From positions 248,001-312,000 of the forward strand of contig CP120457.1 of assembly GCA_034226945.1 (NCBI GenBank): 64,000 nucleotides of DNA, written 5' to 3'. A program made the translations under genes and the position numbers. Every line of letters starts with the position of its first letter. Positions within the stretch are counted from its first letter, which is position 1. Below are positions 1 through 58,000 of the stretch, in pieces. The notes beneath the pieces were generated by a model. The model saw only the letters and a program-made list of their open reading frames with translations, was not told where the DNA came from and searched no databases. The DNA comes from Picochlorum sp. SENEW3. Lineage: Eukaryota.

Positions 1-500
1 GTAGGCTTGGGGCCTCGCCCTATTTCAGGTCCACCCTATCGGTCAAATATGCCCTATGATAGGGTAGGGTAGGGTGGAAAATTTTTTTGGCAAAGGGTCC
101 TATCAAAGAACAAATTTGATGGGACACCTGGATTGAGTGTTGGATGGGGAAATCAAACCAAGAAGACCACTCAAACTTATAGGAAATGCTGACAAACCTC
201 TACAAATGAATATGAGACTTCAATAAGAGCGTCGAAATGTTTCCATGAAAGGGCAAATGATGTCTTAGCCTTGCAGTGTGAAAGATCACATTTTCATCCC
301 GGTAGTTCGGGAAGAAAGACAATACGAGGCCTTTTCCATGGGTCAAGGTCACTCAGATATGATTGAAATGAGCATATATATCATTTAGAATACTTACATC
401 AAACTGAATATGGAAGGCATTGATGGAAATAGCGTATAGGTCCACAATAGGGTCAGACCCTATAGGGTTGATACCTATCAACTTCGTGACCTATTATATA

Positions 501-2120
501 CAGTCGTCCGAAAAATGATGACCCAAATTCATCGGGAACACCTTCATGAAGTGGAGGTATTTCATTTTTGTGATCACCCAACGCGCCATATCTACCTACC
601 CACTAGAAATAGACCCTCTAGTCTCTGCTACAGGCATCTACTGGCTCCAATCTATCCATCCGTCCCCAGAAATCGACATTCCACGAGAGGTCAACAATTG
701 CATCCTGTCTGATTCAGTCAGGCATCACCAGATGTGGTGATGCATCATTAAACCGACACATTCTTGTATTGATCATTCCTTTATTGATTTAAATGGCCTA
801 AAAGTCAAGATACACTATCTAGATCGCTCATACATAGTTCTGGAGGTGATTTTCTCTGTGCTGCATTTTCAAAATTCTGGTGACATTTTCAAATGGCATC
901 TGCGAAGATGAGGCGCAGTGAATCTGATTCACGTCGCCAGAATATACATAAAAAGCAAGATAAATCTGGTATAGAAGATTTGAAGACTTGGCAGGAATTA
1001 TATGATGAGGAAGAGGGAAATGAGATCTGTTTCATGCAAAACAAAGGCACGTGGTCCACCAATGATACTATGGTCCAGTGGTTCAAAGAGCATTTCATTC
1101 CACGCGTTCATGTGGCACAAGCAAAGAGGCGATCACAAGGAGAAATCGTATCCAATAAATATGTCGTTCTCCTTGATGGCGTGAGCACCCACTGTCTCAC
1201 GACTTCTTGGATAACAGAGCTTGAGGGACATGATCCTGATCTGATTTTACTTTGGCTTCCTCCCAATATGACGGGTGATCAACAATCCGTGGATGTCAAT
1301 TTCAATAGACCTTTGAAATCCAAATTCAGGCCTATATAGGCAAGTTAGAAAAGAAGAGGAGGGATGTAGATGAGTCCAACCCACTGGTGGACAATACTTC
1401 AAGGGAAAATTCAGCTGCTTATCAATTGAAGGCTGTTATGATCGAGGGGGTCATGCATACATACAAGATAATTCCAGAAATACAAATTGAATGAAAAAGG
1501 ATGGACAAAGGTTGGCAAGTTTGTATACGAGGGTAATGACAAGCCTCATGATGGTTCTGGCTATTACTTAGCATGGGCACAGACACCCAAATTGATGCTA
1601 AAACTCGATATGCCGCAGGAACATTGTTTCACCAATATATGAGTAGTGGTATATCGGATATTATAGGGAATTTATGATTCATTCCCAAGGCTGGAAGGAA
1701 GAAGAAACAGACCAAAGAGAAAGGTACAGACCTGGATCCTGAAGATATGGAGGAAAGCGTTGAAGAGATTGAGGCACGCACTCAACAGTTTCCAGAATAT
1801 GTTACCTCGGACTGTGTCCAGGTGAATTCTTTGAGGAAGAGGCCGCTTATGATATGGTAGTTGACCCCATTTCTGATTGAAGCACTTGACTGGTGGGGGG
1901 TTGGTGGGCCCATATGGCATCTCATACCCAATGACGGCCCCATATCGACTCGAAATCACTGGAATCGATGTAAGATCCCTTTGAATGCCTTCTACTAGGT
2001 CTACCTCGTTTAGAAACCTACAATTTGATGCAAATAAACGAATTTTGTGATTTGGGTTATTTCATTTTGGACCACCGGCACCACCAATAAAAACCAGAGG
2101 TATCTTTTTTCGGACTACTG
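501..2120 (+). mobile_element. pogo/Tigger-like (Tc1-mariner superfamily) DNA transposon, internally deleted/non-autonomous
   Basis: Imperfect TIRs: CAGTCGTCCGAAAAATGAT at 501 and ATCTTTTTTCGGACTACTG ending at 2120. TA lies immediately outside both ends. A DDE_1 transposase remnant lies inside. Confidence 0.88.
893..1339 (+). pseudogene. DDE_1 (pogo/CENP-B family) transposase fragment
   Basis: Motifs 'KGTWSTNDTMVQWFKEHFIP', 'VVLLDGVSTH' and 'LWLPPNMTGDQQSVDVNFNRPLKSKFR'. No N-terminal HTH, and downstream sequence is broken by stops/frameshifts. Confidence 0.85.
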
Positions 2121-26290: not shown

Positions 26291-26523
26291 AAAAAAATTT
26301 TTTGGGAACTTTTTTAATGTTCTAAATATATATTATACAGGCTGGTGCTGTAACCCACACTAATTATTTTGGGCAACGCTCCTGGGTGGAGAGCCTAGGA
26401 GATGTGACAGTTTCTTGGTCAAAAATCGACTTGTAGTGCCACTACATACAGATGAATATAAAGATATAGAACAGGAAAGTCGTGCAGAAAAATAAAGCAA
26501 ACCATATCTCGGATCTTATAAAA

Positions 26524-28885
26524 TCAAAATGGGCACTCTTTAATACGTTCCCATGCTCCAGTTTCTCTGTTGGCCTGGTAATACTGCTCAACAGAATCGC
26601 CATCAAAGCAAATCTTGACCATATAGCCTGGAGCATGTTTGTTCTCAGAATACGTCGAGGAACGGTCGAATCTTGCGAAAAATTTCTCCAGATTCTTTTT
26701 TACCATGGTCATGCGTTTGTTCATCTCAGATTCATTACGCTGCACAGAGGCCTTCTTGAAAAAAGCTCCTTCCTGGTGTGTACCCTTCAATACATAATGA
26801 TCTGTATTCATTCGAATCAGCAGGAATGGAATGTCCTTGGCAAGCCAGTCATGAGTGATCACACGAGTGCGTCGAGCCTCCTGCAGCATGCAATAATGCA
26901 TATGCTGCCATTCGTCCACTTCCAAGGCTGCTGCAATCCTATGAGCAGAATTTTCTTTTCTTGCAAAGCAAAAGTCGATTCTATAGGCACGCCCCGTGGT
27001 ATTGTTTTTGAAAGGGTACCACCTGCCAAGGGACTCGCGCCTGATGTTGAATACGTCTGACACATTATTATTGAGCCATGCACTTGCCATGTCTTCCTTG
27101 ACTTTGCGGCCTGTATTGTCTCCAGAATACCCACTGGATATATAACGCTGGATACATTGGATAGTTTCTAGAGGAAGATTGGATTCATTCTCATCGAGGT
27201 AATGCCGAGCACAGAGATGCCCTTCGAATCTCCTGTACACAGGCCCATCGGCTAGGTTCTGCTGGCATTCTTTCAGGCATCGTTGACATGCTCTAGTGAT
27301 TTCCACATGCTTGGTTTGATCATAATGTGATGAGCAAAGGATTCGCTTGCCATCTCTTGGCAGGCCATACCAGGCAATGGCAGTACACCCCTCGTGCGTG
27401 CAGGTTGACGTGAGGAGATACACCATATCTGGCTCTTTGCATGCATTGCATCGTTCCAAGCGATTTGTTGTGGCTCCCTCGCCATCATATCCATACGATG
27501 CGGTCATCGTGTTGCATTTATTGCATACTGGGTTAGTCTTTGTGTAGCTCCCAATAAGTTTGCTATACCGCTGTCGTAGAGATGCTGCAGTCCTTCCTTT
27601 GAATGTCCCACTGGCCGCAAGTGCATCCCAACACTTTCCCACTTCCTCAACAGATTTCAAAAGACGTAAATCTTCATCCTCAGTGTAATGAGCCGATTTG
27701 ACCGAATATGCGCGGCTGTGCTCCTTAAGATGCTGTTTGTAATTTCTGAGGACAATAGGAAGTTTTGTGCATGGTCTGTCAATCTCTGGGAAATAGTCCT
27801 TACCTACCTTTGCCCAGTCTATATGTCCCAATTTATTGATATGATACTTTTCATTTTGTGACAGCGATAATAGCAGGGTTTTCTGTTCGGATGTCCATTC
27901 TCTCCGCTTTGAAGGCGACTCTGTTGACTGTTGTTCTCTGACATATTTGATCTTCTTCTTGATGGATTCCCTATTCCTCCAAGGCATCAGATACTTACTG
28001 CAATATGCTCGCAGACTCCCCCATTTTGTATCTATATACTCTCTTTCTGGACCATCTTTCAGAAAGGCTGCCACAGCTGCCCTGATCAAGTTCTCCTCAT
28101 CCTCATCATACTTGCCCTTCTTGGACTTGTATTCTTCACCGTAAACGGCATGCAAGATGTTTCTCTTTTCTTCGACTGCTTCTTCCAGATCCTTCTTACC
28201 TTGCGCATACCTTGAAGGAGCATCTGTGATGCTATTGCCTTGGGCATCTCCATGCACCCTTCATGCAGAATATATACATGGTCAATCAATGTAGCATAAT
28301 TAGGCCTCTCCTCTCATGAATCACACATGGATGTGTTATGTGTATGATATTGACGTACCTGTCACCTGACTTCTCCAGAGGGGCGAATGGCACTCCCAGA
28401 TTGACAGAAACCTCTGTGAGACGTCCTTGCATTGGAGTGCTCTTGACCGCGTCTGGACAGATCTTTTGGGGAGATGGATCACAGCAACGCTCACCAGAAA
28501 ACAAGCAAGTGCTATCATTGTTTAGTAACTTGAGACGCTTTGCTTCACGAGGGCCATATGCAACCTGTGGAGCAGTGTTTTCTTGATTCTCCTTGCATGT
28601 TTTTGTTCTTGGAGAATAATTCGCAAGATCATCCTCTAAACATGGAACATGAGACTCCGACTGGCTTCCTGTAAGGTCCACCACCTCTACTGTTGCACCA
28701 CTGCTATGCTCAAGGGTCTCATCATACAAGGAATCAGTCTCTCGATAGGTCAGAGTGACATCATCATCATCATTGTTGTTGTTGTTGATAGGCTGCTGTG
28801 GAAGACTATGGGATGATGCGACAGGCTGAAAGTAGAATGTAATCAGTCTGTTGTTTAAGGATGCCTCTTCTTCTCTTGGACCCAT
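26524..28885 (-). CDS. Myb/SANT repeats + EsV-1-7-like Cys-rich repeats + PD-(D/E)XK-type endonuclease fusion (intron 28259-28358)
   Basis: Myb repeats 'REWTSEQKTLLL...DWAKV' and 'YTEDEDLRLLKSVEEVGKCWDAL...GRTAASLRQRY'. Cys repeats 'CNKCNTMTASYGYDG...RCNACKEPDMV...CTHEGCTAIAWYG...LCSSH'. Nuclease 'YRIDF...LEVDEWQH...IRMNTDHY'. The upstream exon splices in frame (AG|G GTG). Confidence 0.8.
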
Positions 28886-29207
28886 TGAGAAAACCTGCAA
28901 GTGACATATACAATGATCAACTAATAACTATCATTAAAACAGAGAAGGGTAATTTCGCATCGCATAAATCACGTCTTGGCGTACCTTTTTCTATTTTCAC
29001 TGTCGTATACAAAGCGATTTGGAAATACCACGCCACTCGTGTTGTGATTCAAGCAGTCTTTGATGTCCTGCTGTTGTGTATATATAATTATTATTGAAGA
29101 CTATTACCATCTGAAAACTCTTCTTTCCATCGTATGATAGCAGTGTACGAGAGACATTTGATCTCATCGCATTCAAAATTGGAAGCATCATTCGATCACT
29201 GGCTGGT

Positions 29208-29240
29208 CTACCCACCTACCCACCTACCCACCTACCCACC
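29208..29240 (+). repeat. (CCTACCCA)n 8-bp tandem repeat, ~4 copies
   Basis: Read directly from the sequence. Confidence 0.85.
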
Positions 29241-29612
29241 TGCAGGCAGCCCATCCCGAAACATCAACACCGCCGTCCTGTCCTGATATTTCATGCCTCC
29301 AACTGAAGAGATGCTCAAAATTTTCTTGACAACAATAAAACTCTTCCATTCCTTTCCAACACCACAGACACATAGCATCCTTTTCATGACGTAAACTTGA
29401 AAGTATCTCAATTCTTCCAACACCCTACCGAACAACCAGACCTGACGAGTCGGATGCACCCAGGCAGGTGATATAAGATCTGTTATATAAATAATTCACC
29501 ATGGTGCCCATATGGTACCACGATGTGTGGGTCATCTCCACTGTCGGGATAATTTTCCTCGGCAGATGCAATGCATTACCACAACTACACTCTGATATCA
29601 CGAAAAGAAGAA

Positions 29613-32089
29613 GAAGAAACAATATACAATATCATGTCCATGGGGCTTCCTTTGGTCTCTGCGCCCTTCGTCTTCTGAGGCAATGTGGCCTGCACGAGCC
29701 AGGGAGAGACGGAAACCTAAAGGAGCCCCAATATGCATAAGCATATGCACTGCTCTACTTCGAGAATTACAGAGAAAGATAAATAAAAGCACAGAAAGAG
29801 CGAAAAATTGAATCAAGTTCGAACAGTGCATGAAATAATTCATTGTGTTGATGAATTCATACCTACTAGATGGCCATGTTGATGGCCAGAACCCTGCTGC
29901 TAGATATATATATATACCTCCATATATTATTAGCATACCATCGATCTAAAGATTCTAAAGATTCGAACAGGCTCTCACACGTATGCCATCCCTTCATGAT
30001 ACTCGTCACCCCTCACTACTCATCACCATGACCGCACATGTACTCTTTCCACTCACTCACTGTACTTCTAGTATATTGATCTTCTCAGAAATCATGCACA
30101 TGCGATCATTAAGATTATAGGGAACGATTTTCATCGTCATTGAAGATGAAGGGATTTGCCTCGGCAACTGGATCATAACTCTCCATGAAAAAGCCATCCT
30201 GGTTGTCGTTGACAAACAAAGGGGTTCCTGGAGTGGAATTCTGCAAGATGTCATCGTCCACGAGGCCATGTACTCCTAGAAGAGACTCTGCGACTGGAGT
30301 TTCTTGACATGTTGGCTGCGGCAAGACAGAGTCAGGGAGCCCATCGAAGATGGCATTGTTGTAGCCATGTCCTGATGACAGGTCAATCCCAGATCCTTTT
30401 CCTTCTGGTTGCACCAGACGCAAAGCATCATCATGCTGTCCGCCATTATCAGGACGTCTTGGTAGGATACCATTGAATCCTGGAAGAAGCTCTGCGGCAG
30501 GGATTCCTGGACATGTTGGCTGCGGCAAGATGGAGTCAGGGGACGTATCAAAAGCACCCTCATCAGAGGCATTCTGCTCTGATGTGTCGCCACTGCCATC
30601 TCCTGGTACCATTTTTGGTCGCACCAGAGAACGTGGAGAAACATCATCCTGCTGCACGCCATCGCCCTCAAGATCTAGTGGTCTCTTTGCACTTTTGCTG
30701 CTGGATGGGGATGCATGCTCTAATGGATTAGTTTCTGTTCCACGGCGCTTATTCGATCTAGAAATCTTTGAAGCTGTGGAGAGCAGGGTTTTCAGCGCAG
30801 CCCTACGTGCTTCGTCTTTAACAGATGTACAAAAGCTTTTCCTTACACCTTGGTCCAGCTGCTTCCAGCTCTCGTTTGCTTCCAGATCCAGATCACTAGC
30901 CTTGCACTGGATGTAAGCATCCACCTGGACACGTATGCATAAACGTGCTGGACGTGTCACTTCTTCCGTATATTTAGTCTTCTCCATTGATGCTGTATAG
31001 ATCATATCAAGTGCTTCTTTGGCTTTCTGTTCAGCCGAGACGATCTCATTCAGAAAGAAGTTGAGGCACCTGAGTGACACAATAAAAAAAGAGTGCGTTG
31101 TTGTGCCCCTTCCCATGATTTGATCTGGGCAGAAAATGTGTTCAATCTCGCCCAAGTGCTCCTTTACTATTTCTTTAAGCCTTTTATTGGTTGTAGCCGG
31201 TGTCATTGCACTGGGGGTGACGACTGTGTAATGGAAAAAGGGCAGTCGTCTAATGTTCTTAGGAAGACTAAATTCTTCGATTGTCTCATCAAAACCCCCT
31301 CGGACCTCAGCCCCCTCGCATATCGTCAATAACTTCCGAATAAGTTCGATTTGGCGGCCATCCTCGGATTTTCTTTCGCAAGTTTCTTGGAAACTGTCGT
31401 CGCTGGCCATGGTTCGTTCGTTTTGAGAGAAAAAGAAAGCAAGAAAAAACCGAAAAGCACTCTATGCTATATCACCGTTGCCTCTGCATATCGACAATAG
31501 TCAAATGTCTATGAATCGTTGTGAATCAGATAGAACAAGCCGCGGCAAAATGTTTGCGACAGAATTGTTGACTCGAGCTGTTCGGCTTCATCTAGTAGTA
31601 GATGTCGCTCGCAGCGCTGCGGTTGAAACCGTTTTGTAGTGATAAAAACGGGTTCTAGACACATATAAACACCAACATGTCGTATATATGTGATACTAAT
31701 GACATACGATTGCACGTACAAGAGTTTCGGTTTGAAGTTGACTTTGCGTTCGACTACTCTGCTCTACTCTCAACACTTGAGAAGAAGAAAAGACAGTCGG
31801 TACCTAAACAGAGAATAGTTACTACTGTTGTTGGATATATGGTATGAATTGGAGGACTATTACATGCTGGAGTGCCTCATGATGGCGGAGTTTTGCTGAT
31901 TGATTCTCGAATAGTCTGTCCTTCAAGGCGGGTAAATTCAAATTCGCGAATTCGATTGACACCCCCTGTCAAAGGCTCTTTTTGAAGGGATCGTGGGAAG
32001 CTTTCCCTGAGATGGCTGTGTGTATGCCATCAAAAGGAACGTTTGATCGGAGATGGAAGATACGTTAGGAGATGTGAGACTGTCTTGGT
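29613..32089 (-). repeat. Left arm of ~2.5-kb inverted duplication (partner 43955-46648)
   Basis: 29613-~30715 and ~31400-32089 are near-identical reverse complements of ~45340-46648 and 43955-44643. Confidence 0.93.
30115..31410 (-). CDS. Hypothetical protein, paralog A of the inverted-arm gene family
   Basis: 431-aa intronless ORF. Its C-terminal half is nearly identical to 44635-46134, and its N-terminal domain is distantly homologous. Confidence 0.8.
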   Translation of the reverse strand: MASDDSFQETCERKSEDGRQIELIRKLLTICEGAEVRGGFDETIEEFSLPKNIRRLPFFHYTVVTPSAMTPATTNKRLKEIVKEHLGEIEHIFCPDQIMGRGTTTHSFFIVSLRCLNFFLNEIVSAEQKAKEALDMIYTASMEKTKYTEEVTRPARLCIRVQVDAYIQCKASDLDLEANESWKQLDQGVRKSFCTSVKDEARRAALKTLLSTASKISRSNKRRGTETNPLEHASPSSSKSAKRPLDLEGDGVQQDDVSPRSLVRPKMVPGDGSGDTSEQNASDEGAFDTSPDSILPQPTCPGIPAAELLPGFNGILPRRPDNGGQHDDALRLVQPEGKGSGIDLSSGHGYNNAIFDGLPDSVLPQPTCQETPVAESLLGVHGLVDDDILQNSTPGTPLFVNDNQDGFFMESYDPVAEANPFIFNDDENRSL

Positions 32090-32260
32090 CCTTCTTTCAC
32101 CTCCTACTAAGCCCATCTTTCGACCGGAGGATCTTCTGAGATAGCATATTAGGCCAAAAAACGGCATATATGCCGTTGCTATATATATAGCATAGACTAC
32201 GGCAAACCGGCTCGCTATGCCAGGCCCCCGCTATGCTGATGACCCAAGGTGAATCACCTA

Positions 32261-32292: not shown

Positions 32293-32714
32293 TAATAGAA
32301 ATCCCACAATCGAGTTGATCCGCCCTTATAACTCTTAATTAATTAATTAAGAATGGGTTTCTAAAAAGGAAGTTTTCGAACCTTTTTAATGTTCTAAAAT
32401 TCTCATTAGCCCCGGGTCCTAAAAACCCCCGATCGAGGGGCAATCTTGACTCATCTCATTCGCACTGGATACACAAGTACTGTGCACAATTCTTCGCATG
32501 TACAATCAATCTACACTTTAAAGTTATTTTGGCAATCTTCATGCTGCAACGCTCACCTCGGTGACCTACACCTTGAACGAGAGTTTGAGCATGTCCTATA
32601 CATGTGCGTTTTGCTCTCTCACACATTGTTGCAATCTCTACCCATGATGCTATATCGGTATAATCATATATTTTCATCTATCTTATCCGCATCTGAGCAA
32701 TTTCTGTGCAGGAA

Positions 32715-33623
32715 ATGGCCCTCCCTTTACACGAGCTGTACAAAGACAGGGACGTCTGGGAGTTTTGGAGAGAGACTGAGGCGTTTTCGGACGCTATTCC
32801 CCGCATCTGTAACCACGTAGAGACTCTAATTCAACGCTATGGGGCATTGTACGGCGTGGTGGTGTGGCTGGGGACCGATGGCAAGATGTATATGGTTTCC
32901 AGCAGGAACTTGGGGCTTGCCTTTAGGCTCATACCCTTGAGGCTTTTGAAGCAAGGTCTGAGGTCCTACGTCGCTGAAATCCTGGGATATAGACCCCTCT
33001 GGGTTGATTGTATTAAGGTGAAGAATATATATGGACGAGGGAGCCAGGACGAGAGGGGAAATAGCAAAGGATATCACAACAAGAAGGCTGCTTTCTCCCT
33101 GCTGCAGAAGAGGCTTGCAGAGTCGCACGCCTTGCCTGTGGTCGCTCTAGTTCACGCTAACAATAAGTATTTAACGCTGTGTCATCCACAGAAAGATACG
33201 AAGATGCAAAATATGCTGGAGAAGGTGATAAAGTACTACCAATCCTTGTCCAATGATGGGTGCATGCCAAAAATCAAGCCTAACTTCTCGTTTCTGCCGC
33301 CCTCTTTGCATGTTGACAGCAGTTGCAGACTTAAGCGACCATCAAATTTGTCGTCTCGTCCGAACAGGAGAAAGAAGACGCCCAAGACAAGGGATTGCCA
33401 GTCTCCAGGGGATGAATGGGAGGCCATGGAGTTTGTGCATGAACCTGGCTCGGTGCCGTGGTATTGTCACGCGATCAAGGATCCTAACGGCACCGGAGTA
33501 GCTGCTTTGATCAAGTCAGACATGTATTATAAATGGGCGTTCGCGGATGCTCGATGCCATGGGCCTGGGGGCAGTATGAGGGTCCACCACAACTTGCTGG
33601 TTGAGGTGGAATCTGAAGCTTGA
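32715..33623 (+). CDS. ORF immediately upstream of the KDZ transposase ORF; likely its N-terminal part (frame change near 33600)
   Basis: ~300-aa ORF overlapping the next ORF by 23 nt in a different frame, with the same GC-richer composition. Confidence 0.6.
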   Translation: MALPLHELYKDRDVWEFWRETEAFSDAIPRICNHVETLIQRYGALYGVVVWLGTDGKMYMVSSRNLGLAFRLIPLRLLKQGLRSYVAEILGYRPLWVDCIKVKNIYGRGSQDERGNSKGYHNKKAAFSLLQKRLAESHALPVVALVHANNKYLTLCHPQKDTKMQNMLEKVIKYYQSLSNDGCMPKIKPNFSFLPPSLHVDSSCRLKRPSNLSSRPNRRKKTPKTRDCQSPGDEWEAMEFVHEPGSVPWYCHAIKDPNGTGVAALIKSDMYYKWAFADARCHGPGGSMRVHHNLLVEVESEA

Positions 33624-35976
33624 TCCCATGGGCCATTTGCGGTGCTCTTGTGCCGTATTTCGCAATTGTCTGGAGCCCAAAGAATGTGTTCACACGTTGT
33701 ATACCCGTGTGAACTCGGAACGCCTGCGCAGTATGGCGTTTTCAAAGGAAGGCGAGGTGGTGACCATCATGAAAAATAACTCCTCCACAGCTGGCTACTA
33801 CGTGGACGGCTGCTTCGTCAGGATGCAAGGCGATAGGGGTCTTCGATGCGATTCAGATAAAGCTTATTATTGCCGGCATGTCTCTCGGGTGAGGGAGGCA
33901 TTGCACCTGGATGTGGAGCCTGGAGAGGAAGAGAGTGAGGGTTCACTTGATCCCTGCTCCTCTTCCTCTGATGACGAGGCAGACGTGCTGCCCACGAACG
34001 CATGGATAACGGATACATCAAAATCATTCAAGATAGAGTATCCTTATAGCAGTGTATTGGAGGAGGCGGTGATGGAGCGGCTGCTGTTTGGCTTTTCAAG
34101 AGACAAGGAAGGCACCCCACTTGGGCCTCTTCAGCCACCCATGCCCACCTCGATCACGTGCGAATGCGGCCTTCCTTATACAAGGAGAGGATTTGAAGAG
34201 ACAGATCCTGTGACGGTGTATATGAGACCGCCGCACTGCGCCAGGACGCTTCCCTGCATGGTGTTGAAGTGCCAAAGGGGTGCACCAGAATGCACCCTGC
34301 ACTATACAGGCTTGGAGGACGGCCTGTGGCGTGCCTCCAAGACAGTGGCGGTAGAACTGGATCTTTTAGTACGATGTGCAAGGGATTTTGTCGGATTTAG
34401 AGGACATTCGCTCACTGCACAGCGCGACAGCATCAGTGAAATGTATGACATGGTTTCTCGCACCAATCCCACTGAGAGTTTCCTAGTGGCCAATGCGTTC
34501 CGAAAAGCAGTATATGGAGTTGCTAGCTGTCTTCAATTTGATATAAAGGGCATTGAGAGGAGCTTGCGAGAAGGATGTGGGGCTGCAATGCCACCAAATG
34601 CCATGATGTGTCCCATTTGCCAGGACAGCCCAGATGTGATCATCATGGATGGCACCTCCATGTCCATCAGCGCCTCTCTTTGCAGCGCCGAGTCCTTTAC
34701 GGCGCGCAGAGGTACTATTACTAAGAAAAGACCGCATTTGATGGTCGAGCGGTGCTTTTTCAATGTCAGCAATGGGACGAATGAGGTCCCAGAGAGACGT
34801 GCAGGGCAGAGGCGAGAAGTCATCAAGCTTGTGCAGGACTTTGAGTCTTGGATCGAGTCGAAGGACACTCCACAGGGATTTGTGGGCATCCATAGACTTC
34901 GTAGTCTCGCTGATACGTGGAATTTGGGCGACTTTGTGGCGTGGGTGCACGAATCGTGCAGAGAGGGGCGGCTGTCTGTGGTGGATAGGAAAGCAGTCAA
35001 AGCCATGCTGCGGGAGTTGCGGAGCGATAGTCCAACCACGTCATACCTCTCCTACGAGTCTTCTATAGACCTTGATGGCTGCCTGGAGGCGGGGAGGGTG
35101 GTGGGACAGGCCGTCATGGACAAAGTGGGCCCCATCGTCAAGAATTTGCTAAGGATTGTGCAAGCGCCGGGCCAAGAGGGAGCTGTGATCCCCATTGGGT
35201 GGGTTTCTTTTCTACGTGAGATCATAGAAAGAAGCAGATGGATTTCCGAGATCAACTGTGGCGAGCGCGAGCTGGGAGATGACATTCCTCACCCATGTGA
35301 GGCCTCTGCAGTGAATGGGGTTTTCCTCAGGAATGGCGTCTGTTGCGGCCTCCCTCGGCTGCGTTTCCGTCCCCCATACGCATGCGATGGACAGAAAGAA
35401 GATTCAAAAGTGACTGAGAAGGACAAAGCGTCCTGTAAGCATGCGTTCCACAAGCCAGGGAAGAGGACAGGTGGAGTGTTTACGTGCATGTGCCAGCACG
35501 GCGTTGCATATGCTTCATTCATCATCAAAAATGCCGAGGGCCGCGATGAACCTTTCACATTTCTCACCTGCTATCTCAAGAAAGCTCCGAGGGTCGTGGT
35601 GTACGATTTCGCGTGCGCATTGATGGATTACTGCCTCAACAGGGCACCAGACTTTTTCAAATTTACTCTGTTCGTTGTGGATGCCTTCCATTGGGTGAAT
35701 CACGTCGCCTGTGCCAGGAGTTTTTCCATTAAATTATACAGTGAGATGAAGGACATTGCCAGCATGACGCAGAACACAGAGGCGTGCGAACAAATCAATG
35801 CTGCCATGAAGAGGTTCAAGCCGGTTCTTTCCAGGATGGGCCAGCGGCCATTCATCGCCCTGTTACGCCTGTTTCTGACACAATGGAACATCTCAAAGTA
35901 CCATAAACTCATTCGATACAGCATGGCGCGCCCAAGGCCGGAGCAGGTGCAGGTACATGCGCCAGATCAGCAGTGA
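33601..35976 (+). mobile_element. Kyakuja-Dileera-Zisupton (KDZ) transposase, Kyakuja-like, with SWIM-like and CxC Zn-binding regions
   Basis: 'CPICQDSPDVIIMDGT', 'RTGGVFTCMCQHG...EGRDEPF', 'VVYDFAC.L.DYCLNRAPDFF...FVVDAFHWVNH..C' and 'NTEACEQIN'. N-terminal 'CSC...CVH' and 'C...YCRHV'. Confidence 0.88.
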
Positions 35977-39800: not shown

Positions 39801-40251
39801 TATTACACGCTACTGAAAAGTTTTAATTTTTCATTTTATTTCCGAATTTGTGGTCGGGGGACGATATCTTTATGGCCGTGACTCTTCGGATTCGTGTTTT
39901 TCGCGTTGTTTTCGCGCGATTCTGACCATTTTTACGATCCAGCGACTCGAATGACACCTTAATACAATATTACATTGATTTAGGGGGGCGAGGGAATTTA
40001 ATACGCGCCAGGGGAGCCGAGGGAGCGACATCGTGAAAAAGTTTGGAAGCCTATTACCGGCCCTCGAAAAATTTATTATTTTATTATGCTAAGGGAAAAT
40101 CATGCCACTAGACCACAGCCCCTTTGATCGGACGCGAACGTCAATCTATTTTGGAGCTGGGAAGAATCGAACTCCCGACCGTTCCCATTCTATGCATATC
40201 TTGATACCTCTGCGAGATTTTTGGATCAATAAGTACTATCGATGTTCCGCA

Positions 40252-42166
40252 CTTTTTTTTTTTTTTTTGAGCCGTGTTTTCTGCACGCCAAGGCTCTGGA
40301 CAGCGGATCCGACCGCCCCTTGGTGTGCTGAAGAAGCAAGAGAGTGAGAAAATCTGGGCCGACACAAAGTTGCTGCTTGCGTGGGCGGCCTTCTCGTGAG
40401 GGAACCCGGCTGCCTGTGCGACTGAGGAAGCTTGGGGTGTCAATGAGAAGCGCCCACGTTGCAAGTGGTTCCTTTCTGGTGGCCCGTGCCTGTCAGGAGA
40501 CAGAGCAGTGGCCGCCAGCTGGGTGTCCAGATACCATTCCAGGCATGTGAGGATTGCACTCACTAAAAACTCACTCCCACACCTCGGGATGGGATCACCC
40601 AACCCCTTGGCGTCGACTGGTTGTTCTGGGCCTTCCAGACCAGACCCCGCTGTCTCCGAGCTGTTCTGCCGCCTCGGCGACATGGGAGTGAACAGCCCCG
40701 AGCCTGGGGGCGGTGGTCCTTTCAGCAAAGAACTGCCTTACACTAAACGGTGCATTGGCTCTGGGACGGACCGGGGGTGACCCTCTGCGCTGGGTCACCT
40801 TATCACGAATGTTCTGAAAGTGCTTGCCGAGCACTCGATGTAAAAATCTGCCTACACGTTGCCACAACGGGATCTGTGGCTGGCTGCTGCTGGCCTCGCC
40901 AATCGAGGCTGTGTCTTCTCCATCCTCGTCCTCATCCATCAGCCAAGACATGGCTGAGTCCTCTGGTGCCTGCATTGAGGAACCATCACTGTCTGTGTCC
41001 TGCACACTGGGCATCTCATCTTGAGGGCTCGTCCCTCGCACGTGAGTAGATAAATTGTTAGTATGATCAGTGGAAGACGTAGATCGTAAGTCATACCGGT
41101 GGGACTCCCTGGCTGGCTGGGAGGGAGTCCCTTCCACGTGGGGGGCTGTCCCCCTGGCTGGCTGTGGGAACGGCGTGCCCACCCACATTTGCTGAAATTT
41201 CTGAAGAATTTCAGCGTCAGTGGTGGAGAGACCTCCAAGGCACGCTGTCCACACAGTGTCACTTCGACGTTGCAGCTGGTGGTTTTTTTTGAGCCGTGTT
41301 TTCTGCACGCCAAGGCCCTGGAACAGCGGATCCGACCGCCCCTTGGTGTGCTGAAGAAGCAAGAGAGTGAGAAAATCTGGGCCGACACAAAGTTGCTGCT
41401 TGCGTGGGCGGCCTCCTCGTGAGGGAACCCGGCTGCCTGTGCGACTGAGGAAGCTTGGGGTGTCAATGAGAAGCGCCCACGTTGCAAGTGGTTCCTTCCT
41501 GGTGGCCCGTGCCTGTCAGGAGACAGAGCAGTGGCCGCCAGCTGGGTGTCCAGATACCATTCCAGGCATGTGAGGATTGCACTCACTAAAAACTCACTCC
41601 CACACCTCGGGATGGGATCACCCAACCCCTTGGCGTCGACTGGTTGTTCTGGGCCTTCCAGACCAGACCCCGCTGTCTCCGAGCTGTTCTGCCGCCTCGG
41701 CGACATGGGAGTGAACAGCCCCGAGCCTGGGGGCGGTGGTCCTTTCAGCAAAGAACTGCCTTACACTAAACGGTGCATTGGCTCTGGGACGGACCGGGGG
41801 TGACCCTCTGCGCTGGGTCACCTTATCACGAATGTTCTGAAAGTGCTTGCCGAGCACTCGATGTAAAAATCTGCCTACACGTTGCCACAACGGGATCTGT
41901 GGCTGGCTGCTGCTGGCCTCGCCAATCGAGGCTGTGTCTTCTCCATCCTCGTCCTCATCCATCAGCCAAGACATGGCTGAGTCCTCTGGTGCCTGCATTG
42001 AGGAACCATCACTGTCTGTGTCCTGCACACTGGGCATCTCATCTGGAGGGCTCGTCCCTCGCACGTGAGTAGATAAATTGTTAGTATGGTCAGTAGAAGA
42101 CGTGAAGCTTGGGGTGTCAATGATTTTTTTTTTTTTGAGCCATGTTTTCTACACGCCAAGGCTCTT
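40252..42166 (-). repeat. Head-to-tail tandem of a 1023-bp unit (one full, one partial, one stub), each ending in a poly(A) tract on the minus strand
   Basis: Identical ORFs offset by 1023 (e.g. 40344/41367, 40508/41531). T-run + GAGCC(G/A)TGTTTTCT(G/A)CACGCCAAGG at ~40260, ~41285 and ~42130. Confidence 0.93.
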
Positions 42167-43492: not shown

Positions 43493-43954
43493 TTAATTAT
43501 CATGAAACACTGCAGCCTGTTACCAATCCACAATACACACATCCTTATCCAACAGCAAAAGTACTAATAGAAATAGAGATCACCAGATCTTGGGGTTGGC
43601 ATAGAACAACACCATGATGTTTCCAACAGTTTGCTTTGATTGTGAATTACTGTTCACGAATGAACTTGCCCTGCAGGAGACAGGTCAAACCAGCCCATGA
43701 AAGCCAGAATAGACACTTCAGGCCTCCCTTCCCTGGTGGAATGGGGCTCAGAAACATGTAAAAACCCTGGAAATACCACAGGATCACTTGACGTGGCCAA
43801 CACAGGGCTCTAAGACCCAAAACTGCTCAGACTGACCGGCAAGACACTTCAAAATCGAATCATAATTTGGGTCACTGCGGCATTTTCTGCTTCCATACAT
43901 TTCTGCTTTCATCTGTATGTAGTGGCACTCCAAGTCGATTTTTGATCTCTTCTT

Positions 43955-46648
43955 ACCAAGAGACTCTCACATCTCCTAACGTATCTTCTATCTCCGATCA
44001 AACGTTCCTTTTGATGGCATACACTCTCAGGGAAGGGTTTCCCACGATCCCTTCAAAAAGAGCCTTTGACAGGGCATGTCAATCGAATTCGCGAATTCGA
44101 ATTTACCCGCGCTTTGAAGGACACACGATTCGAGAATCAATCAGCAAAACTCCGCCATCATGAGGCACTGCAGCATGGAATAGCCCTCCAATTCATATTA
44201 TATATCCAACAACAGTAGTAATTATCCTCTGTTTAGGCACTGACTGTCTTTTCTTCTTCTCAAGTGTTGAGAGTAGAGCAGAGTAGTCGAACGCAAAGTC
44301 AACTTCAAACCGAAACACTTGTACGTGCTGTCATATGTGATTCGTATCACATAGATATGAAATATTGATGTATATATGTGTCTGGAACCCGTTTTTATCG
44401 CTACAAACGGTTTCAACCGCAGCGCTGCGAGCGACATCTACTACTAGATGAAGCCGAACAGCTCGGATCAACAATTCTGTCACAAACACTTTGTCGCGGC
44501 TTGTTCTATCCAATTCACAACGATTCATAGACATGTTACTATTGTCGATATGCAGAGGCAACGGTGATATAGCATAGAGTGCTTTTCGGTTTTTCTTGCT
44601 TTCTTTTTCTCTTTCTTTGCCAAACGAACGAACCATGGCCAGCACCGGAAGACTTGCTGCCCTCAATGGCATCTGCAGCGAGAAATTCCACAAGATACTA
44701 TCTGAAAATGGGATCAAAGCAAGGGGCACCATCAGTGGTGGATCTGAATCGTATAGCAGAGACGTATTTTGTCTTCCAAATGATGTACCACTGCCACTTT
44801 CTCATTACAGAATCGTCTTTCCCGTGGCAGTTGACGTGAAAACTGTCAATTCAGCTTTCAGGATAGCCCTTGGCAAGGATATGGCGAATCATACCGTCTG
44901 TCCCGAGGCAGCCAATGGTAGCACAAAGGAGCACTCGTTTTTTGTGTATGTGTCTAGCAATCTCAAAGATTCGCTGGGCGAATCATGCATCAGAGATGAA
45001 CAGACCAAAGAAAACCTTCTTGTGGTATATAATGCATCTCAGCCGGAAAACACTACCTGTAGTGACATGACACTTTACCAGCGACTGTGTGCACTTGTCT
45101 TGCTGTATTCTTTCATCCTGTTCAAAGCGGATGCTCGGGCACTGAGGATTCAGCAAGGTACCTTCTTCTCTATGCGGTTAAAAGATATAAACAAAACTCT
45201 TAAGAAGAACTGCAAGCGCACTGCAAGTCAGATTGTGAGGAAAGCGCAGAGATCTCTTCTGGGAAAAGCCTATGCAACATACCAGTTAAACTTGGAGCAA
45301 CCAAAAGATTCGATAGATGTTGCCATACCAAGAGAGGATGCATCCCCATCCAGCAGCAAAGGTACAAAGAGACCAATAGATCTTGAGGATAATGGACTAC
45401 AGCATGATGATGTTTCTCCGCGTTCTCTGGTGCGACAAAAAATGGTACCAGGAGGAGATGGTAGTGGCGACACACCAGAACAGAATGCCTCTGATGATGG
45501 TGCTTTTGATACGTCCCCTGACTCTGTCTTGCCGCAGCCAACATGTCAAGGAACTCCTGCCGCAGAGTCTCTTCCAGGATTCAATGGTATCTTACCAAGA
45601 CGTCCTGATAACGGCGGACAGCATGATGCTTTGCGTCTGGTGCAACCAGAAGGAAAAGGATCTGGGATTGACCTGTCATCAGTACAGGGGTACAACAATG
45701 CCATCTTCGCTGGGCTCCCTGACTCTGTCTTGCCGCAGCCAACGTGTCAAGGAACTCCTGCCGCAGAGTTTCTCTCAGGATTCAATGGTATCTTACCAAG
45801 ACGTCCTGATAACGGCGGACAGCATGATGCTTTGCGTCTGGTGCAACCAGAAGGAAAAGGATCTGGGATTGACCTGTCATCAGTACAGGGCTACAACAAT
45901 GCCATCTTCAATGGGCTCCCTGACTCTGTCTTGCCGCAGCCAACGTGTCAAGAAACTCCAGTCGCAGAGTTTCTCTCAGGATTCAATGGCCCCTCGGACG
46001 ATGACATCTTGCAGAATTCCACTCCAGGAACCCCTTTGTTTGTCAACGACAACCAGGATGGCTTTTTCATGGAGAGTTATGATCCATTTGCCGAGGCAAA
46101 TCCCTTCAATGACGATGAAAATCGTTCCCTATAATCTCCATGATCGCATGTGCATGATTTCTGAGAAGATCAATATACTAGAAGTACAGTGCGTGTGTGT
46201 GAGAGTGGAAAGAGTACATGTGCGGTCATGGTGATGAGTAGTGAGGGGTGACGAGTATCATGAAGGGATGGCATGCGTGTGAGGGCCTGTTCGAATCTTT
46301 AGAATCTTTAGATCGATGGGATGCTAATAATATATGGAAATATATATATATATATATCTAGCAGCAGGGTTCTGGCCATCAACATGGCCATCTAGTAGGT
46401 ATGAATTCATCAACACAATGAATTATTTCATGCACTGTTCGTACTTGATTCATTTTTTCGCTCTTTCTGTGCTTTTATTTATCTTTCTCTGTAATTCTCG
46501 AAGTAGAGCAATGCATATGCATATGCATATTGGGGCTCCTTTAGGTTTCCCTCTCTCCCTGGCTCGTGCAGGCCACGTTGCCTCAGAGGACGAGGGCCAC
46601 AGGGACAAAAGGAAGCCCCATGGGCATGATATTGTATATTGTTTCTTC
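43955..46648 (+). repeat. Right arm of inverted duplication (partner 29613-32089)
   Basis: Near-identical upstream and downstream flanks and 3' coding half. Confidence 0.93.
44635..46134 (+). CDS. Hypothetical protein, paralog B of the inverted-arm family, with a 201-bp (67-aa) internal tandem repeat
   Basis: ATG context AACCATGGCCAGC is the same as in paralog A. 'PDSVLPQPTCQ' units start at ~45517, 45718 and 45919. Confidence 0.82.
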   Translation: MASTGRLAALNGICSEKFHKILSENGIKARGTISGGSESYSRDVFCLPNDVPLPLSHYRIVFPVAVDVKTVNSAFRIALGKDMANHTVCPEAANGSTKEHSFFVYVSSNLKDSLGESCIRDEQTKENLLVVYNASQPENTTCSDMTLYQRLCALVLLYSFILFKADARALRIQQGTFFSMRLKDINKTLKKNCKRTASQIVRKAQRSLLGKAYATYQLNLEQPKDSIDVAIPREDASPSSSKGTKRPIDLEDNGLQHDDVSPRSLVRQKMVPGGDGSGDTPEQNASDDGAFDTSPDSVLPQPTCQGTPAAESLPGFNGILPRRPDNGGQHDALRLVQPEGKGSGIDLSSVQGYNNAIFAGLPDSVLPQPTCQGTPAAEFLSGFNGILPRRPDNGGQHDALRLVQPEGKGSGIDLSSVQGYNNAIFNGLPDSVLPQPTCQETPVAEFLSGFNGPSDDDILQNSTPGTPLFVNDNQDGFFMESYDPFAEANPFNDDENRSL

Positions 46649-55094: not shown

Positions 55095-58000
55095 TCATGT
55101 ATCCTTGTCTTTTTTATCCAATGATGGGTGTGTCTCAGATGATGCCTGCATCATCATCAGTGCTTTGAATTCCATTTGTGCTGTCGGATTTGTCATCACC
55201 TCTTCCATTTTATCCAAAACGCCTTGCGGTAACGTGGACAGAACCTCCTTTGGAAGGCTGAGAAGAGAGATGTCTGCTCCGTTTGTTGCCGACACGTCAT
55301 GTTTGGGCTTTTTGCTGCTGTTTCCATTGTCACATGGGGGTGATGACGATGGTTCGCTGGATTTTCTCTTCACTGCCTGCGATGTGTCGTCATCTCGGGT
55401 GAAATATTTCGCTCTGTAGTTTTGGTAAAAATTCTTTATTTGAGTCAGTGTTTTCGATGGAACTGCTTCCTGAAGCTTTTCCCAATCTCTACCATATGTT
55501 TTGTATGCCTTGGTGAGAGATTCCTTGTCCTCATCAGTCCAGACGGGTCTACCTCTGCCCTTTTTCTTTCCAGCAGGCCCATTGGCTGGCTTGTCTGGTA
55601 CAGCATGCTGGTACATCTCAAAGTATGATTCTACGCCACGAACTAGTTCGATGACATCCTCTGGTGCACCTCGTCCATGTTGAATGTCGGACATACTTGA
55701 GAGAAGTTTTCTTGACTGGGCATGACTGGTGAGCAAACTGCCAACTTCGCCGCCTGGAAGAAGCATAGAGTCCAACTTCATCCACTCACTTGAGGGAACA
55801 TCTGCCAGGTGTGGGCGCATTGTGGCCACAGTATCGCTCAAATCTTCTCCAGTGTCCTCCACAAGGTTGAGGATGGACAGTACTGGATTCCACAAGTTGT
55901 ATTCCAGCGTCTTATCTTCAGCGTAGCTCACCTCGGACTTTTCTTGCGCTAATGGCTTTGCAGGATCATCAAGCAAGCGATCAAGATTGAGTCTCTGACT
56001 GTGCCTCTCCCAGTATTTTTTGGCGGCATCCACAGTCCTGTTCATATATGACGCAATGGAGGCAAAGTCTTTTCCATAAATTTGGACAGCTTCAATGTAT
56101 TTCTTGTCTGTATTGACATTAGGGAGCCGACCTCTACCAACAGATTTTGAATCGCTTGATTTTGACTTTTTCGAGACGACGTCTTTACCAGAGGTTTCAG
56201 TGAGCTGATCGAGCTTGGAGGATGACAGTCTGTAATCTCCGGTGGGCAAACCATCACTCTTGGATTCCTTGAGGCTCTCTTGCACTTCGGATGGAGCAGT
56301 TTCTATTGCCTCTTTTCTGGGAGAATCCAAGTGAGACAGTAAATCAAATGACCGTGCAGAAGGCCTCTTCAACCTGGGACCAAATGAGTTTGGCTTTGGG
56401 TGCTCATCAAAGTAGGTATCAACAAGATATTGCTCAGAGTTGTTGCTCTCTGCAAGCTTTGTTTTTACCTTGTTTTTATTCTTCTTTGATCCTTTACGGC
56501 TTTTCTGCTTTGCTGAAGTGCTACTATCGTGGGTAGAATCAGTGGTCTTCACACTGTCCATTCGCTGTGCTGGTTCAGGGTAATGCTGAGGGGCTACAGC
56601 CATGCCAATGTGACCTGCACCGCCCATTCGTTGCATTGCCGTCTCTTCAGCTTTTTCTCGCCGTTTCCTCAACTGCCACTTCCTTCTTGTCACCTCAAAC
56701 TCTTTGGTACGCTGTATTGCATAATAATGCTTGATAATCTCTGGAATAGTTCGACGTGGCAGGTGGGTTGATATCCTTGCAAAGTCCTTGTGGTAGATTA
56801 AAAACTTTTCAGCAAAGATGTTCTTCTCTTCCTGACTCCAGACTCTGGTATAGTCGCATTCCTCCCACTCTTTCCCAGGGATTTTCACGAGTCTGTTCCA
56901 GTCCTGATAATGCTTGACCCATCGTGCAGACCTCTCTGTGAAGATCAGCTGTGTTGGCAACTGCAATGTTCCCATCAATACGTGGTCATATTCGTTCAAG
57001 AAGAGACATGCATACAAACAAGAAACATACCGCTGTAGATGATTTCACAGATTCCACTGCTTGAAGCGTTGCAATGGCAATGCGTTCCTCCAAGTCGCTT
57101 CGAACAATACCTCTATTCCTTCCTCCTCTGGAGGAGGAGCGGCCCAATGATGGGCTGGTCGGTTCGTTTGACTGATCAAACGCACTAGGCTTTCCGGTAA
57201 ATGACCCATGCGTAGAAATACCACGAAGAGGACTTCCAATCACCTGAGATGCAAGCCTTTGCTTCTCTTGCTGCAGCCATTTTTCAAAGGCAAACCTGTA
57301 TCTGATTCCTGCAAGCACATGCTGCTTCAGCACAATAACCAGCTCTTTTCGAAGGGCATTATAGACACCCGAAGATACTGGACTAGGATTTTGACCAAAT
57401 GCTTCTTCAAGGCGCTGGGCGGTAATCTTTTGAGCCTCGGGGATACCTCTCTGCATTTCGCTAGGATACAGCTTGCTAAATTTGTTCCCTGTATTGGACG
57501 AGATACTTTCATTCTCCTTGAGGATGATTTTGTTCACATCTTGCTCTCTCTTTTCCTTCAATATTTGTCCAAATTTACTGATGAGTTTCCTCTGTTCTGG
57601 TGCCAGCAACTCCATGCGCCTCTGCAAATTTCGAGACCGCCCTGTACTCTGCTTTGAGGATGACTTCCCACGCTTCTTCTTATGAGATTCTGTCGACCCG
57701 TCATCACTCTCATCTTCAGAATCCGTAGAGAGCTCTTCTTCTGACACGTCAAGGGATACTGGGCTTGGAGGCACTGGCGCCCTGTCTGATGCCATGCCAA
57801 CCTCATTCGTCAGGATGGGCAGGGTCTCTTTCAAAGTCTCAATATCATCGTCCAGCGATGCAATACTTCTCTTTGTTTCATCCTTCTTCTCATCTAACCG
57901 TTTTATTTTCTCTAAAATATCTGCGGGGTTGAGGTTCGTGTGATTGCCCAGAGACACTTCATTCTTTGAATCCTTGTCATCTTGCTGGCGAACTTTTGGC

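Follow-up and report, generated by a model that had tools for sequence, protein, structure and literature searches.

What does a gene that joins Myb-type and EsV-1-7-type modules to an endonuclease-like domain do in the nuclear genome of Picochlorum, and did it come from a giant virus? The question is raised by a gene on the minus strand of the window, by which we mean the whole 64,000-nt stretch of contig CP120457.1 (1,133,345 bases, a nuclear chromosome) from the green microalga Picochlorum sp. SENEW3 that was analysed. It runs from an ATG at 28885 to a stop at 26524, which is exactly the interval proposed as its coding sequence (CDS), and encodes a product of 753 amino acids (aa). The first-pass annotation described it as a fusion of Myb repeats, EsV-1-7 Cys repeats and a PD-(D/E)XK endonuclease and asked whether this was a domesticated giant-virus-type nuclease. 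The reading that we favour, and consider reasonably probable, is an endonuclease that is guided by protein modules, probably active, kept by the host and derived from a mobile family of zinc-finger nucleases. It is favoured because the core residues have been retained, no other part of the protein is as conserved as the nuclease, each species has one intact copy, and the gene is spliced and expressed. Residue numbers of domains refer to the frame of exon 2 (P0001).

Sequence searches with the C-terminal domain gave little. No Pfam family matched at an expect value (E) <=10, Vsr (PF03852) and DUF559 (PF04480) included, and comparison with the PDB by sequence or profile returned chance-level rows only (a photolyase at E 0.06 and a thioredoxin at E 0.19). 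The domain was modelled with AlphaFold2 (AF2) from an alignment of four sequences. The model is of moderate confidence, with a predicted local distance difference test (pLDDT) score of 67.0 and a predicted template-modelling score (pTM) of 0.73. It contains a helix at model positions 3-19, strands at 24-28, 50-54 and 63-69, a helix at 78-94, a strand at 99-105 and a helix at 130-152. This predicted alpha-beta-beta-beta-alpha-beta order is that of the restriction-endonuclease core. In a structural comparison with 48,161 PDB chains, Vsr (1cw0_A) came first with Z 8.5, a root-mean-square deviation of 3.4 and 120 aligned residues, and was the only match with Z>=8. It was followed by the catalytic domain of I-Bth0305I (3r3p_B; Z 7.5, 98 residues aligned), the Bax1 nuclease (Z 7.0) and the DUF559-like protein NGO0050 (3hrl_A; Z 6.6). 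A published classification of the PD-(D/E)XK superfamily has a group 'VSR, DUF559, DUF2726' whose PDB entries are exactly 1cw0, 3hrl and 3r3p (PMC3424549). Hence, the restriction-endonuclease-like fold supposed for the C-terminus is supported, both by the core topology of the model and because ranks 1, 2 and 4 fall into one published group.

A Foldseek search against BFVD gave five matches at E<=1e-3, the best at 7.8e-5 with probability 1.0 and a template-modelling (TM) score of about 0.5. The best 20 rows comprise 14 from named giant viruses, one from a phage and five without a name. Cedratvirus, pithoviruses, klosneuvirus-like metagenome-assembled genomes (MAGs), Heterosigma akashiwo virus and marseillevirus make up the giant-virus rows, which are mostly annotated as 'Endonuclease', 'C2H2-type' or 'treble clef zinc finger'. 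Neighbours in the ESM-Atlas, which serve as leads only, were viral clusters, PvuRts1I_N and DUF559 for the nuclease, and Nucleocytoviricota EsV_1_7_cys clusters at 0.95 for the Cys units together with the nuclease.

The nuclease turned out to belong to a family that a single query hardly reaches. HMMER with the nuclease domain alone against 1.84 billion representatives returned four matches only: a Picochlorum orthologue, a 234-aa metagenome protein (P0006; 36% identity, pairwise E 1e-33 to the nuclease domain) and two repetitive proteins of 5253 and 3096 aa, matched over 12 and 2 short stretches and judged spurious as relatives. Likewise, a first scan of IMG/VR yielded 74 pattern matches and 0 relatives, and a first profile search found P0006 only. 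The family emerged only once L001, from JGI metagenome contigs, had joined the profile; here at least three classical C2H2 fingers are followed by the nuclease (36% over 72 aa, E 1e-8). The resulting profile of three sequences, with acceptance at E<=0.1, retrieved 69 proteins of 91-410 aa (46 at E<=1e-3) with metagenome, algal and coccolithovirus members, EhV156_00232 of Emiliania huxleyi virus 156 and an Ectocarpus protein being the named ones. Pfam recognised C2H2 in 22 of the 69, EsV_1_7_cys in 16 and A20 in one; the others matched no family, and several of them begin within a finger and may be fragments. The 90% cluster of EhV156_00232 also contains a 419-aa 'zinc finger protein' of EhV202. 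This protein clusters with the adjacent EhV156 open reading frames (ORFs) 00231 (80 aa) and 00232 (208 aa), so that the gene looks split in EhV156. L001 (C2H2 array and nuclease, 3-803, plus strand), P0010, P0013, P0015 and others look like natural zinc-finger nucleases. A second ORF of L001 (2026-2706) has weak Endonuclease VII/HNH-like traces (E 0.14).

When IMG/VR was scanned with the family alignment, 210 stretches encoding relatives were found; figures for viral ORFs refer to the best 80 of these by similarity to P0006. Many of the 80 loci lie on contigs of giant-virus metagenome-assembled genomes (GVMAG) or on contigs of 100-400 kb, and two (L002 and L051) share a single 5.6-kb contig. 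The nuclease stands at the C-terminal end of the ORF (116-871 aa) in 80/80 loci. Pfam found EsV_1_7_cys in 48, DUF1936 in 5, zf-A20 in 3 and Zf_WRKY19 in 1, and neither C2H2 nor Myb in any. The statement that Cys repeats joined to this type of nuclease are common in giant viruses and occur in algal genomes agrees with the 48 of the 80 IMG/VR ORFs and with the Ectocarpus record. By tblastn against 50,697 phage records the best E was 0.2, and PHROGs and NCBIfam held no family for five members of the nuclease family. EVDExxH, as we call it after its central motif, is a large family without a matching model in Pfam, NCBIfam or PHROGs.

The family core consists of Arg-x-Asp on strand 2, Glu-Val-Asp-Glu-x-x-His on or after strand 3, an Arg in the next helix and Arg-x-Asn-(Pro)-Asp after strand 4. 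The Asp, the EVDE, the His, the Arg and the Asn are invariant in 24 family sequences, the window included, and Asp429, Glu447, Asp449, Glu450, His453, the Arg and the Asn are kept in all three Picochlorum species. The acidic residues described as apparently intact are thus all kept, as is the His. His453 adjoins a stretch of the model with pLDDT <50. In the larger sets, EVDE..H is invariant in the 69 members other than the window protein and in the 80 viral ORFs. The window protein keeps six of the seven columns that are invariant in the 69 other members, the exception being the Pro of NPD, replaced by Thr in SENEW3 and present in both other Picochlorum species. At fold and family level, we can confirm the nuclease as Vsr-like and as part of a histidine-using branch, not one with the canonical D...(D/E)xK motif. 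Of the PD-(D/E)XK assignment, the fold as modelled therefore stands, whereas the canonical motif and a sequence-profile match to Vsr or DUF559 do not.

Judged from the model, I-Bth0305I and the 'EDxHD' Vsr-like homing endonucleases (3R3P; PMC3239194) would fall into the same fold group as the Picochlorum nuclease. They share a modular plan in which a DNA-binding region, predicted as such in Picochlorum, precedes a Vsr-like nuclease at the C-terminus. According to the accessible part of that source, the helix-1 Glu, the strand-2 Asp, the His after strand 3 and a later acidic residue or Asn-x-Asp follow in the same order (PMC3239194). The two differ in that no sequence similarity is detectable between them and in that I-Bth0305I carries NUMOD/helix-turn-helix elements, whereas the Picochlorum protein has Myb and Cys units. 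Moreover, the ORF of I-Bth0305I lies inside a group I intron or intein, whereas the Picochlorum gene is nuclear with spliceosomal introns, and the extra acidic pair in EVDE is invariant in the EVDExxH family. With E. coli Vsr (1CW0; PF03852), hhalign brings the helix-1 Glu and the RxDF Asp into register with Vsr Glu25 and Asp51 in an alignment that is not significant. Vsr itself is bacterial, consists of one domain, nicks at T:G mismatches and has a zinc site of its own. The Vsr/DUF559/DUF2726 group is given as prokaryotic in the accessible part of the classification (PMC3424549), whereas the Picochlorum gene is eukaryotic. For mirusviruses, 16 VSR-like endonuclease genes within spliceosomal introns are mentioned in the available text of a further study (PMC12768974).

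N-terminal to the nuclease, PF19114 matches two stretches, with E 3.2e-9 for the whole frame and 1e-10 for the sub-region (36.9-41.7 bits against a gathering score of 25). A third unit (246-283) aligns to an EsV-1-7 repeat of a giant-virus ORF with 17/36 identical residues and a pairwise E of 7e-4. Hence, the EsV-1-7 repeats first seen as a Cys pattern are supported above the gathering score in repeated form, with the third unit added by pairwise alignment. The Cys units and the nuclease together are colinear with the EsV-1-7 and nuclease protein P0033 (E 6e-6) and with a viral ORF, and the window protein fits the form of the family, in which the nuclease is C-terminal to an array of Zn-type modules. 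Giant-virus EsV-1-7 nucleases such as L006:1558-3321 have the same order of Cys units and EVDExxH nuclease, with pairwise matches to both parts; they differ in lacking Myb and the acidic N-terminal region and in having more repeats (8 Pfam stretches in L006). The C2H2 and EVDExxH nucleases (L001, P0010, P0013, EhV202) share the nuclease family and the side of the tree with Picochlorum, and differ in that their array is classical C2H2 and that of Picochlorum is EsV-1-7 plus Myb. The same PF19114 motif is found in the brown-algal EsV-1-7 proteins of the IMMEDIATE UPRIGHT family, which the accessible part of the source describes as repeat-only and of unknown biochemical function, with no nuclease mentioned there (10.1101/2024.02.19.579948). 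The motif is hugely expanded in brown algae and possibly represents a new class of zinc finger, according to the same part of that source (10.1101/2024.02.19.579948).

Of the 'two clear Myb/SANT repeats' in the first-pass annotation, one is confirmed; a second repeat in tandem is not, and there are two candidates at best. Pfam Myb_DNA-binding (PF00249) gives a single match, at residues 192-235, with E 2.9e-7 and 30.9 bits against a cut-off of 24.4. The repeat also matches MYB21 in the PDB (3osf) at E 0.0019 and scores z 4.8 in a shuffle test against a real Myb repeat of another window protein. Against the same Myb repeat, the Myb-like stretches 48-112 and 118-182 score z 1.9 and 1.7, which is not above shuffles, and they have no Pfam Myb match at E<=10 and no PDB match. 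The AF2 model of the full-length protein (pLDDT 34.8) is unusable and silent on these stretches and on domain packing. The protein used for comparison is a separate host Myb protein at 55098-57044 (minus strand) with two Pfam Myb repeats (E 3.7e-25). In the Picre1 orthologue (P0004), 59 residues are missing (columns 307-364 of alignment A1), from the last part of the first Myb-like stretch through most of the second; this may be an error of the gene model or a real deletion. Telomeric repeats had been suggested as a substrate, and this idea finds no footing: what the Myb repeat matches is MYB21 and the Myb family in general, and nothing points to telomeres. The N-terminal 175 aa matched no Pfam family and are acidic and polar (D+E 28, K+R 15, S/T/N/Q/P 65).

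The full architecture occurs in three Picochlorum proteins only, those of SENEW3, BPE23 (81% identity) and Picre1 (77%), and one further match of the protein search is Myb-only. Each of the three Picochlorum proteomes has one such protein, with no frameshift. No Myb was found among 149 relatives (the 69 proteins, for which 25 of the 27 Pfam families are listed, and the 80 viral ORFs), and the precomputed Pfam annotation of the 69 has none either. The alternative of a widespread conserved single-copy gene does not describe an architecture confined to three Picochlorum species. In the full-text literature searched, with subscription papers outside the scope, no description of the EVDExxH family or of the Myb fusion was found. 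Myb, EsV-1-7 and a Vsr-like nuclease in one protein of a cellular genome is a new architecture among the known modular Vsr-like endonucleases. By sequence comparison, Cys units plus nuclease are the standard form of the mobile-looking family, while the Picochlorum gene has, as features of its own, a Myb region, an acidic N-terminus and spliceosomal introns.

The gene consists of a 578-codon ORF (26524-28260, minus strand; stop at 26524-26526) and an upstream exon. The spliced CDS (28885..28359 joined to 28258..26524) has 2262 nt and a single stop, at its end, so that the frame is intact. Residue for residue, its product equals positions 42-794 of P0002, the NCBI model (WPT15133.1, Picochlorum sp. 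SENEW3), and the translation of exon 2 is 100% identical to WPT15133.1, annotated as 'hypothetical protein PSENEW3_00003074'. The intron between the two exons begins with GTACGT and ends with AG, and the protein junction SGDR|VHGD is uninterrupted in the annotated proteins of the three Picochlorum species. We checked splicing by aligning Logan contigs of four runs (X1, X3, X5, X14) over 26400-29100. X1 and X3 come from one study and are labelled 'RNA?', X5 is probably DNA, and X14 is source-like DNA; the last is probably the source DNA because it gives one colinear contig (26424-29100) with zero differences. X1 and X3 each have a contig that omits exactly 28259-28358, and a second intron of 90 nt with GT-AG ends, 28895-28984, is also omitted in both; X5 and X14 retain the two of them. 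The proposed spliceosomal intron is therefore present as a 100-nt GT-AG intron, and the gene is spliced and expressed, as seen in spliced contigs labelled 'RNA?'. Removal of the 5' intron places an in-frame TAG (28991-28993) upstream of the ATG at 28885, which is therefore likely the translation start. P0002 takes its first 41 residues from another exon upstream, for which the spliced contigs give no support. This model begins in an exon at about 29.2-29.4 kb, and those of BPE23 and Picre1 begin with a short 'MGCLQ' exon; the annotation of the 5' end is inconsistent among the gene models (window 28895-29424).

X1 and X3 contain two variants of the gene side by side: over 26839-27037 one contig has 0 differences and another 12. 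The divergent variant has residues found in the BPE23 protein, and the two could be two haplotypes or two strains. Contigs of the second variant stop fitting at the Myb stretch 27498-27671. A 172-nt 'joint' at this position in one X1 contig was rejected as an intron; it is read as a diverged allele of the Myb repeat because it lacks splice-like ends and because loose ends occur there in X3 and X5. A rough count of synonymous and non-synonymous changes in X1 (12 vs 15 changed codons; 40/196 differences, mixed contigs) was not used.

Table 1. Positions of the features of the gene in the window, the evidence for them and their conservation between Picochlorum species
Feature	Position	Strand	Evidence	Identity to BPE23/Picre1
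Vsr-like nuclease domain (residues 381-578, 198 aa)	26527..27120	-	AF2; PDB fold comparison; BFVD; family profile	
Nuclease core				92-94%
C-terminal tail				92-98%
Predicted active-site segment, Asp429 (RIDF) to Glu447-Val-Asp449-Glu450-x-x-His453	26902..26976	-	Invariance in family	
Three EsV-1-7-type Cys units (246-283, 287-321, 325-358)	27187..27525	-	PF19114 (two units); pairwise alignment for unit 1	83-85%
Myb/SANT repeat, the sole one with statistical support	27556..27687	-	PF00249; 3osf; z 4.8	57% to BPE23, 88% to Picre1; least conserved domain
Two helical Myb-like stretches, candidates only	27715..28119	-	Resemblance by eye; no Myb match at E<=10	
Last coding exon (Myb region, Cys units, nuclease)	26524..28258	-	ORF; spliced CDS equals P0002 42-794	
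Spliceosomal intron, 100 nt, phase 2	28259..28358	-	X1/X3 contigs; junction kept in three species	
First coding exon, about 175-aa acidic/polar N-terminal region	28359..28885	-	No Pfam family	89-93%
5' intron, 90 nt, GTACGC...CAG	28895..28984	-	Joint in X1 and X3 only	

For an active, host-kept nuclease, the following course of action can be proposed. The three EsV-1-7 units, which may bind zinc through their Cys residues, and the Myb repeat would read the DNA and position the nuclease. The nuclease would then cut a phosphodiester bond, with Mg2+ on the conserved Asp and Glu residues; the His would serve as general base, in the manner of Vsr and I-Bth0305I. The service to the host might be defence against viral or mobile DNA, or a programmed or repair cleavage.

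Several observations weigh against this reading. The nuclease model, at pLDDT 67, reaches moderate confidence only, with four segments below 50, and best Z scores of 7-8 are common for models without a true match, so that the Z score alone is borderline. Foldseek against the PDB gave no match at E<=1e-3, with mostly restriction-type nucleases among the weak top rows. There is no link to Vsr or DUF559 at the sequence level in Pfam (E<=10) or PDB profiles, and hhalign to E. coli Vsr gives probability 0.9 and E 0.061. Two residues conserved in >=90% of the family differ in the window, namely a Cys that is Gln80 and the Pro of 'NPD' that is Thr. Finally, splicing is seen in contigs from a single study, and their labelling as RNA is a guess.

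Among the other explanations, a selfish, free-standing homing-type endonuclease gene, which cuts either an allele lacking it or some specific site and is then inserted there through repair, fares best, and even so we regard it as unlikely. I-Bth0305I, which is among its closest relatives of solved structure, is a true homing endonuclease (PMC3239194). The family is abundant in giant-virus contigs and multi-copy there, as with L002 and L051; the coccolithovirus copy seems split into two ORFs in EhV156 and is a single 419-aa protein in EhV202; and the DNA-reading Myb repeat is the fastest-changing part of the Picochlorum protein. The gene also borders a stretch of about 17 kb with a KDZ-transposase-like ORF and an inverted duplication. 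A homing gene, however, fits poorly with two spliceosomal introns and a conserved, host-like N-terminal extension of 175 aa, or with one intact protein per species in three species. Furthermore, the gene is not located inside another gene, and a search for flanking repeats gave only 25-33-nt matches in non-colinear order, with no repeat pair that bounds an insert.

A protein that has lost nuclease activity and acts as a DNA-binding regulator, such as a transcription or chromatin factor, with the fold kept for DNA binding or dimerisation, appears to us rather improbable. Both the Myb repeat and the acidic N-terminus are features typically seen in transcription factors, and the Ectocarpus EsV-1-7 protein IMM is discussed as a developmental regulator in the accessible part of its source (10.1101/2024.02.19.579948). 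The changes from Cys to Gln and from Pro to Thr at two family-conserved positions would also suit such a protein. It is difficult to reconcile with the retention of every invariant core residue in all three species and with a nuclease that is the most conserved part, a pattern that relaxed catalytic constraint would not give.

As to the origin, we computed a maximum-likelihood tree of 140 domain rows. Picochlorum contributes 3 of them, metagenome or named proteins (L001 among them) 70, and the set of 80 viral ORFs 67, identical or short viral rows having been dropped. The tree uses 150 of 342 columns and a quick IQ-TREE search, with support from the Shimodaira-Hasegawa-like approximate likelihood-ratio test (SH-aLRT) only. 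A split with 99% support separates 82 rows (67 viral, 15 metagenome) from 58 rows (55 metagenome and Picochlorum), and Picochlorum pairs with P0006 (96%) on a long branch. Coccolithovirus, Ectocarpus and C2H2-finger members lie on the Picochlorum side; both halves of the tree include viruses because that side has the coccolithovirus members. As far as these sequences go, the tree shows that the Picochlorum gene was not recently copied out of the main IMG/VR clade, and it does not separate donor from recipient; its branches are long, and its viral rows are biased, being the best 80 by similarity to P0006.

In the surroundings, a Pfam scan of 31 long ORFs from the window detected no viral hallmark family; the families present are cellular, apart from one KDZ transposase. 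The GC content of 0.455 at 26-28 kb is similar to that of the flanks, and there is no compositional island. A recently integrated giant-virus gene, as part of an endogenous viral element, is very improbable, since the abundance of the family in giant viruses is set against the absence of a Pfam hallmark family among the 31 long ORFs, cellular neighbours, a GC content like that of the flanks, spliceosomal introns, conservation in three species and a Picochlorum branch that is not nested in the IMG/VR clade. Domestication from a giant virus, as asked at the outset, is not demonstrated, with Picochlorum outside the main IMG/VR clade, no hallmark gene nearby and a direction of transfer that the tree does not reveal. 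The best explanation for the present state is that the gene has been vertically kept in the nuclear genome of the genus Picochlorum.

The neighbours on the low-coordinate side are cellular (aminotransferase, BioDA-like, UbiA, SNF2, oxoprolinase, Sir2 and others). On the high-coordinate side follow a gene of unknown function at 30115-31461, the KDZ-transposase-like ORF at 33580-35976 and an inverted copy of the first of these at 44578-46134; beyond this copy lie ankyrin, NUDIX, biotin synthase, another Myb protein and histone deacetylase. Searches for RNA genes were negative, both for Rfam families (20-40 kb) and for tRNAs (whole window). The two paralogues (30115-31461 on the minus strand, 44578-46134 on the plus strand) are inverted and about 13 kb apart, with shared N- and C-terminal ends; they have internal tandem repeats with the motif PDSVLPQPTCQ and no Pfam family. 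Upstream of each lies a repeat of about 190 nt (31900-32090 and 43955-44140), 89% identical. Between them is the KDZ (Kyakuja-Dileera-Zisupton) transposase-like ORF (plus strand, E 8.3e-8), preceded by an unknown 308-codon ORF (32697-33623); the arrangement may represent a large DNA transposon. Immediately downstream of the nuclease gene, 26396-26456 holds a short dispersed repeat, with further copies at 43908-43978 and 32066-32090. Contig depth at 26396-26456 reaches 123-299 in X14, compared with about 61 over the gene, and several contigs break off at this repeat. The most GC-rich 2 kb (GC 0.565) contain, at 40141-41760 on the minus strand, three overlapping long frames of the same strand with no Pfam family.

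Beyond this locus, the family bears on how the EsV-1-7 motif works. The motif is repeatedly fused to a nuclease, in the position that C2H2 arrays occupy in sister proteins; therefore, it is predicted to bind DNA. At least 210 stretches on giant-virus contigs encode relatives, yet none of the three model libraries matched the nuclease family, and its C2H2-fused members resemble natural counterparts of engineered zinc-finger nucleases. One may go further and suppose that EsV-1-7 is a modular DNA-reading finger that can be swapped with C2H2, that EVDExxH proteins are natural zinc-finger nucleases spreading selfishly among giant viruses and algae, and that the Picochlorum copy is a tamed, sequence-directed restriction factor against viral or mobile DNA with an added fast-evolving Myb repeat and acidic tail; we offer this combined picture as a speculation with little chance of being right in full. 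The Picochlorum gene is a cellular, intron-bearing and expressed copy conserved in three species. As Picochlorum strains are grown in laboratory culture, it offers a practical entry to the question of whether hosts have recruited such nucleases.

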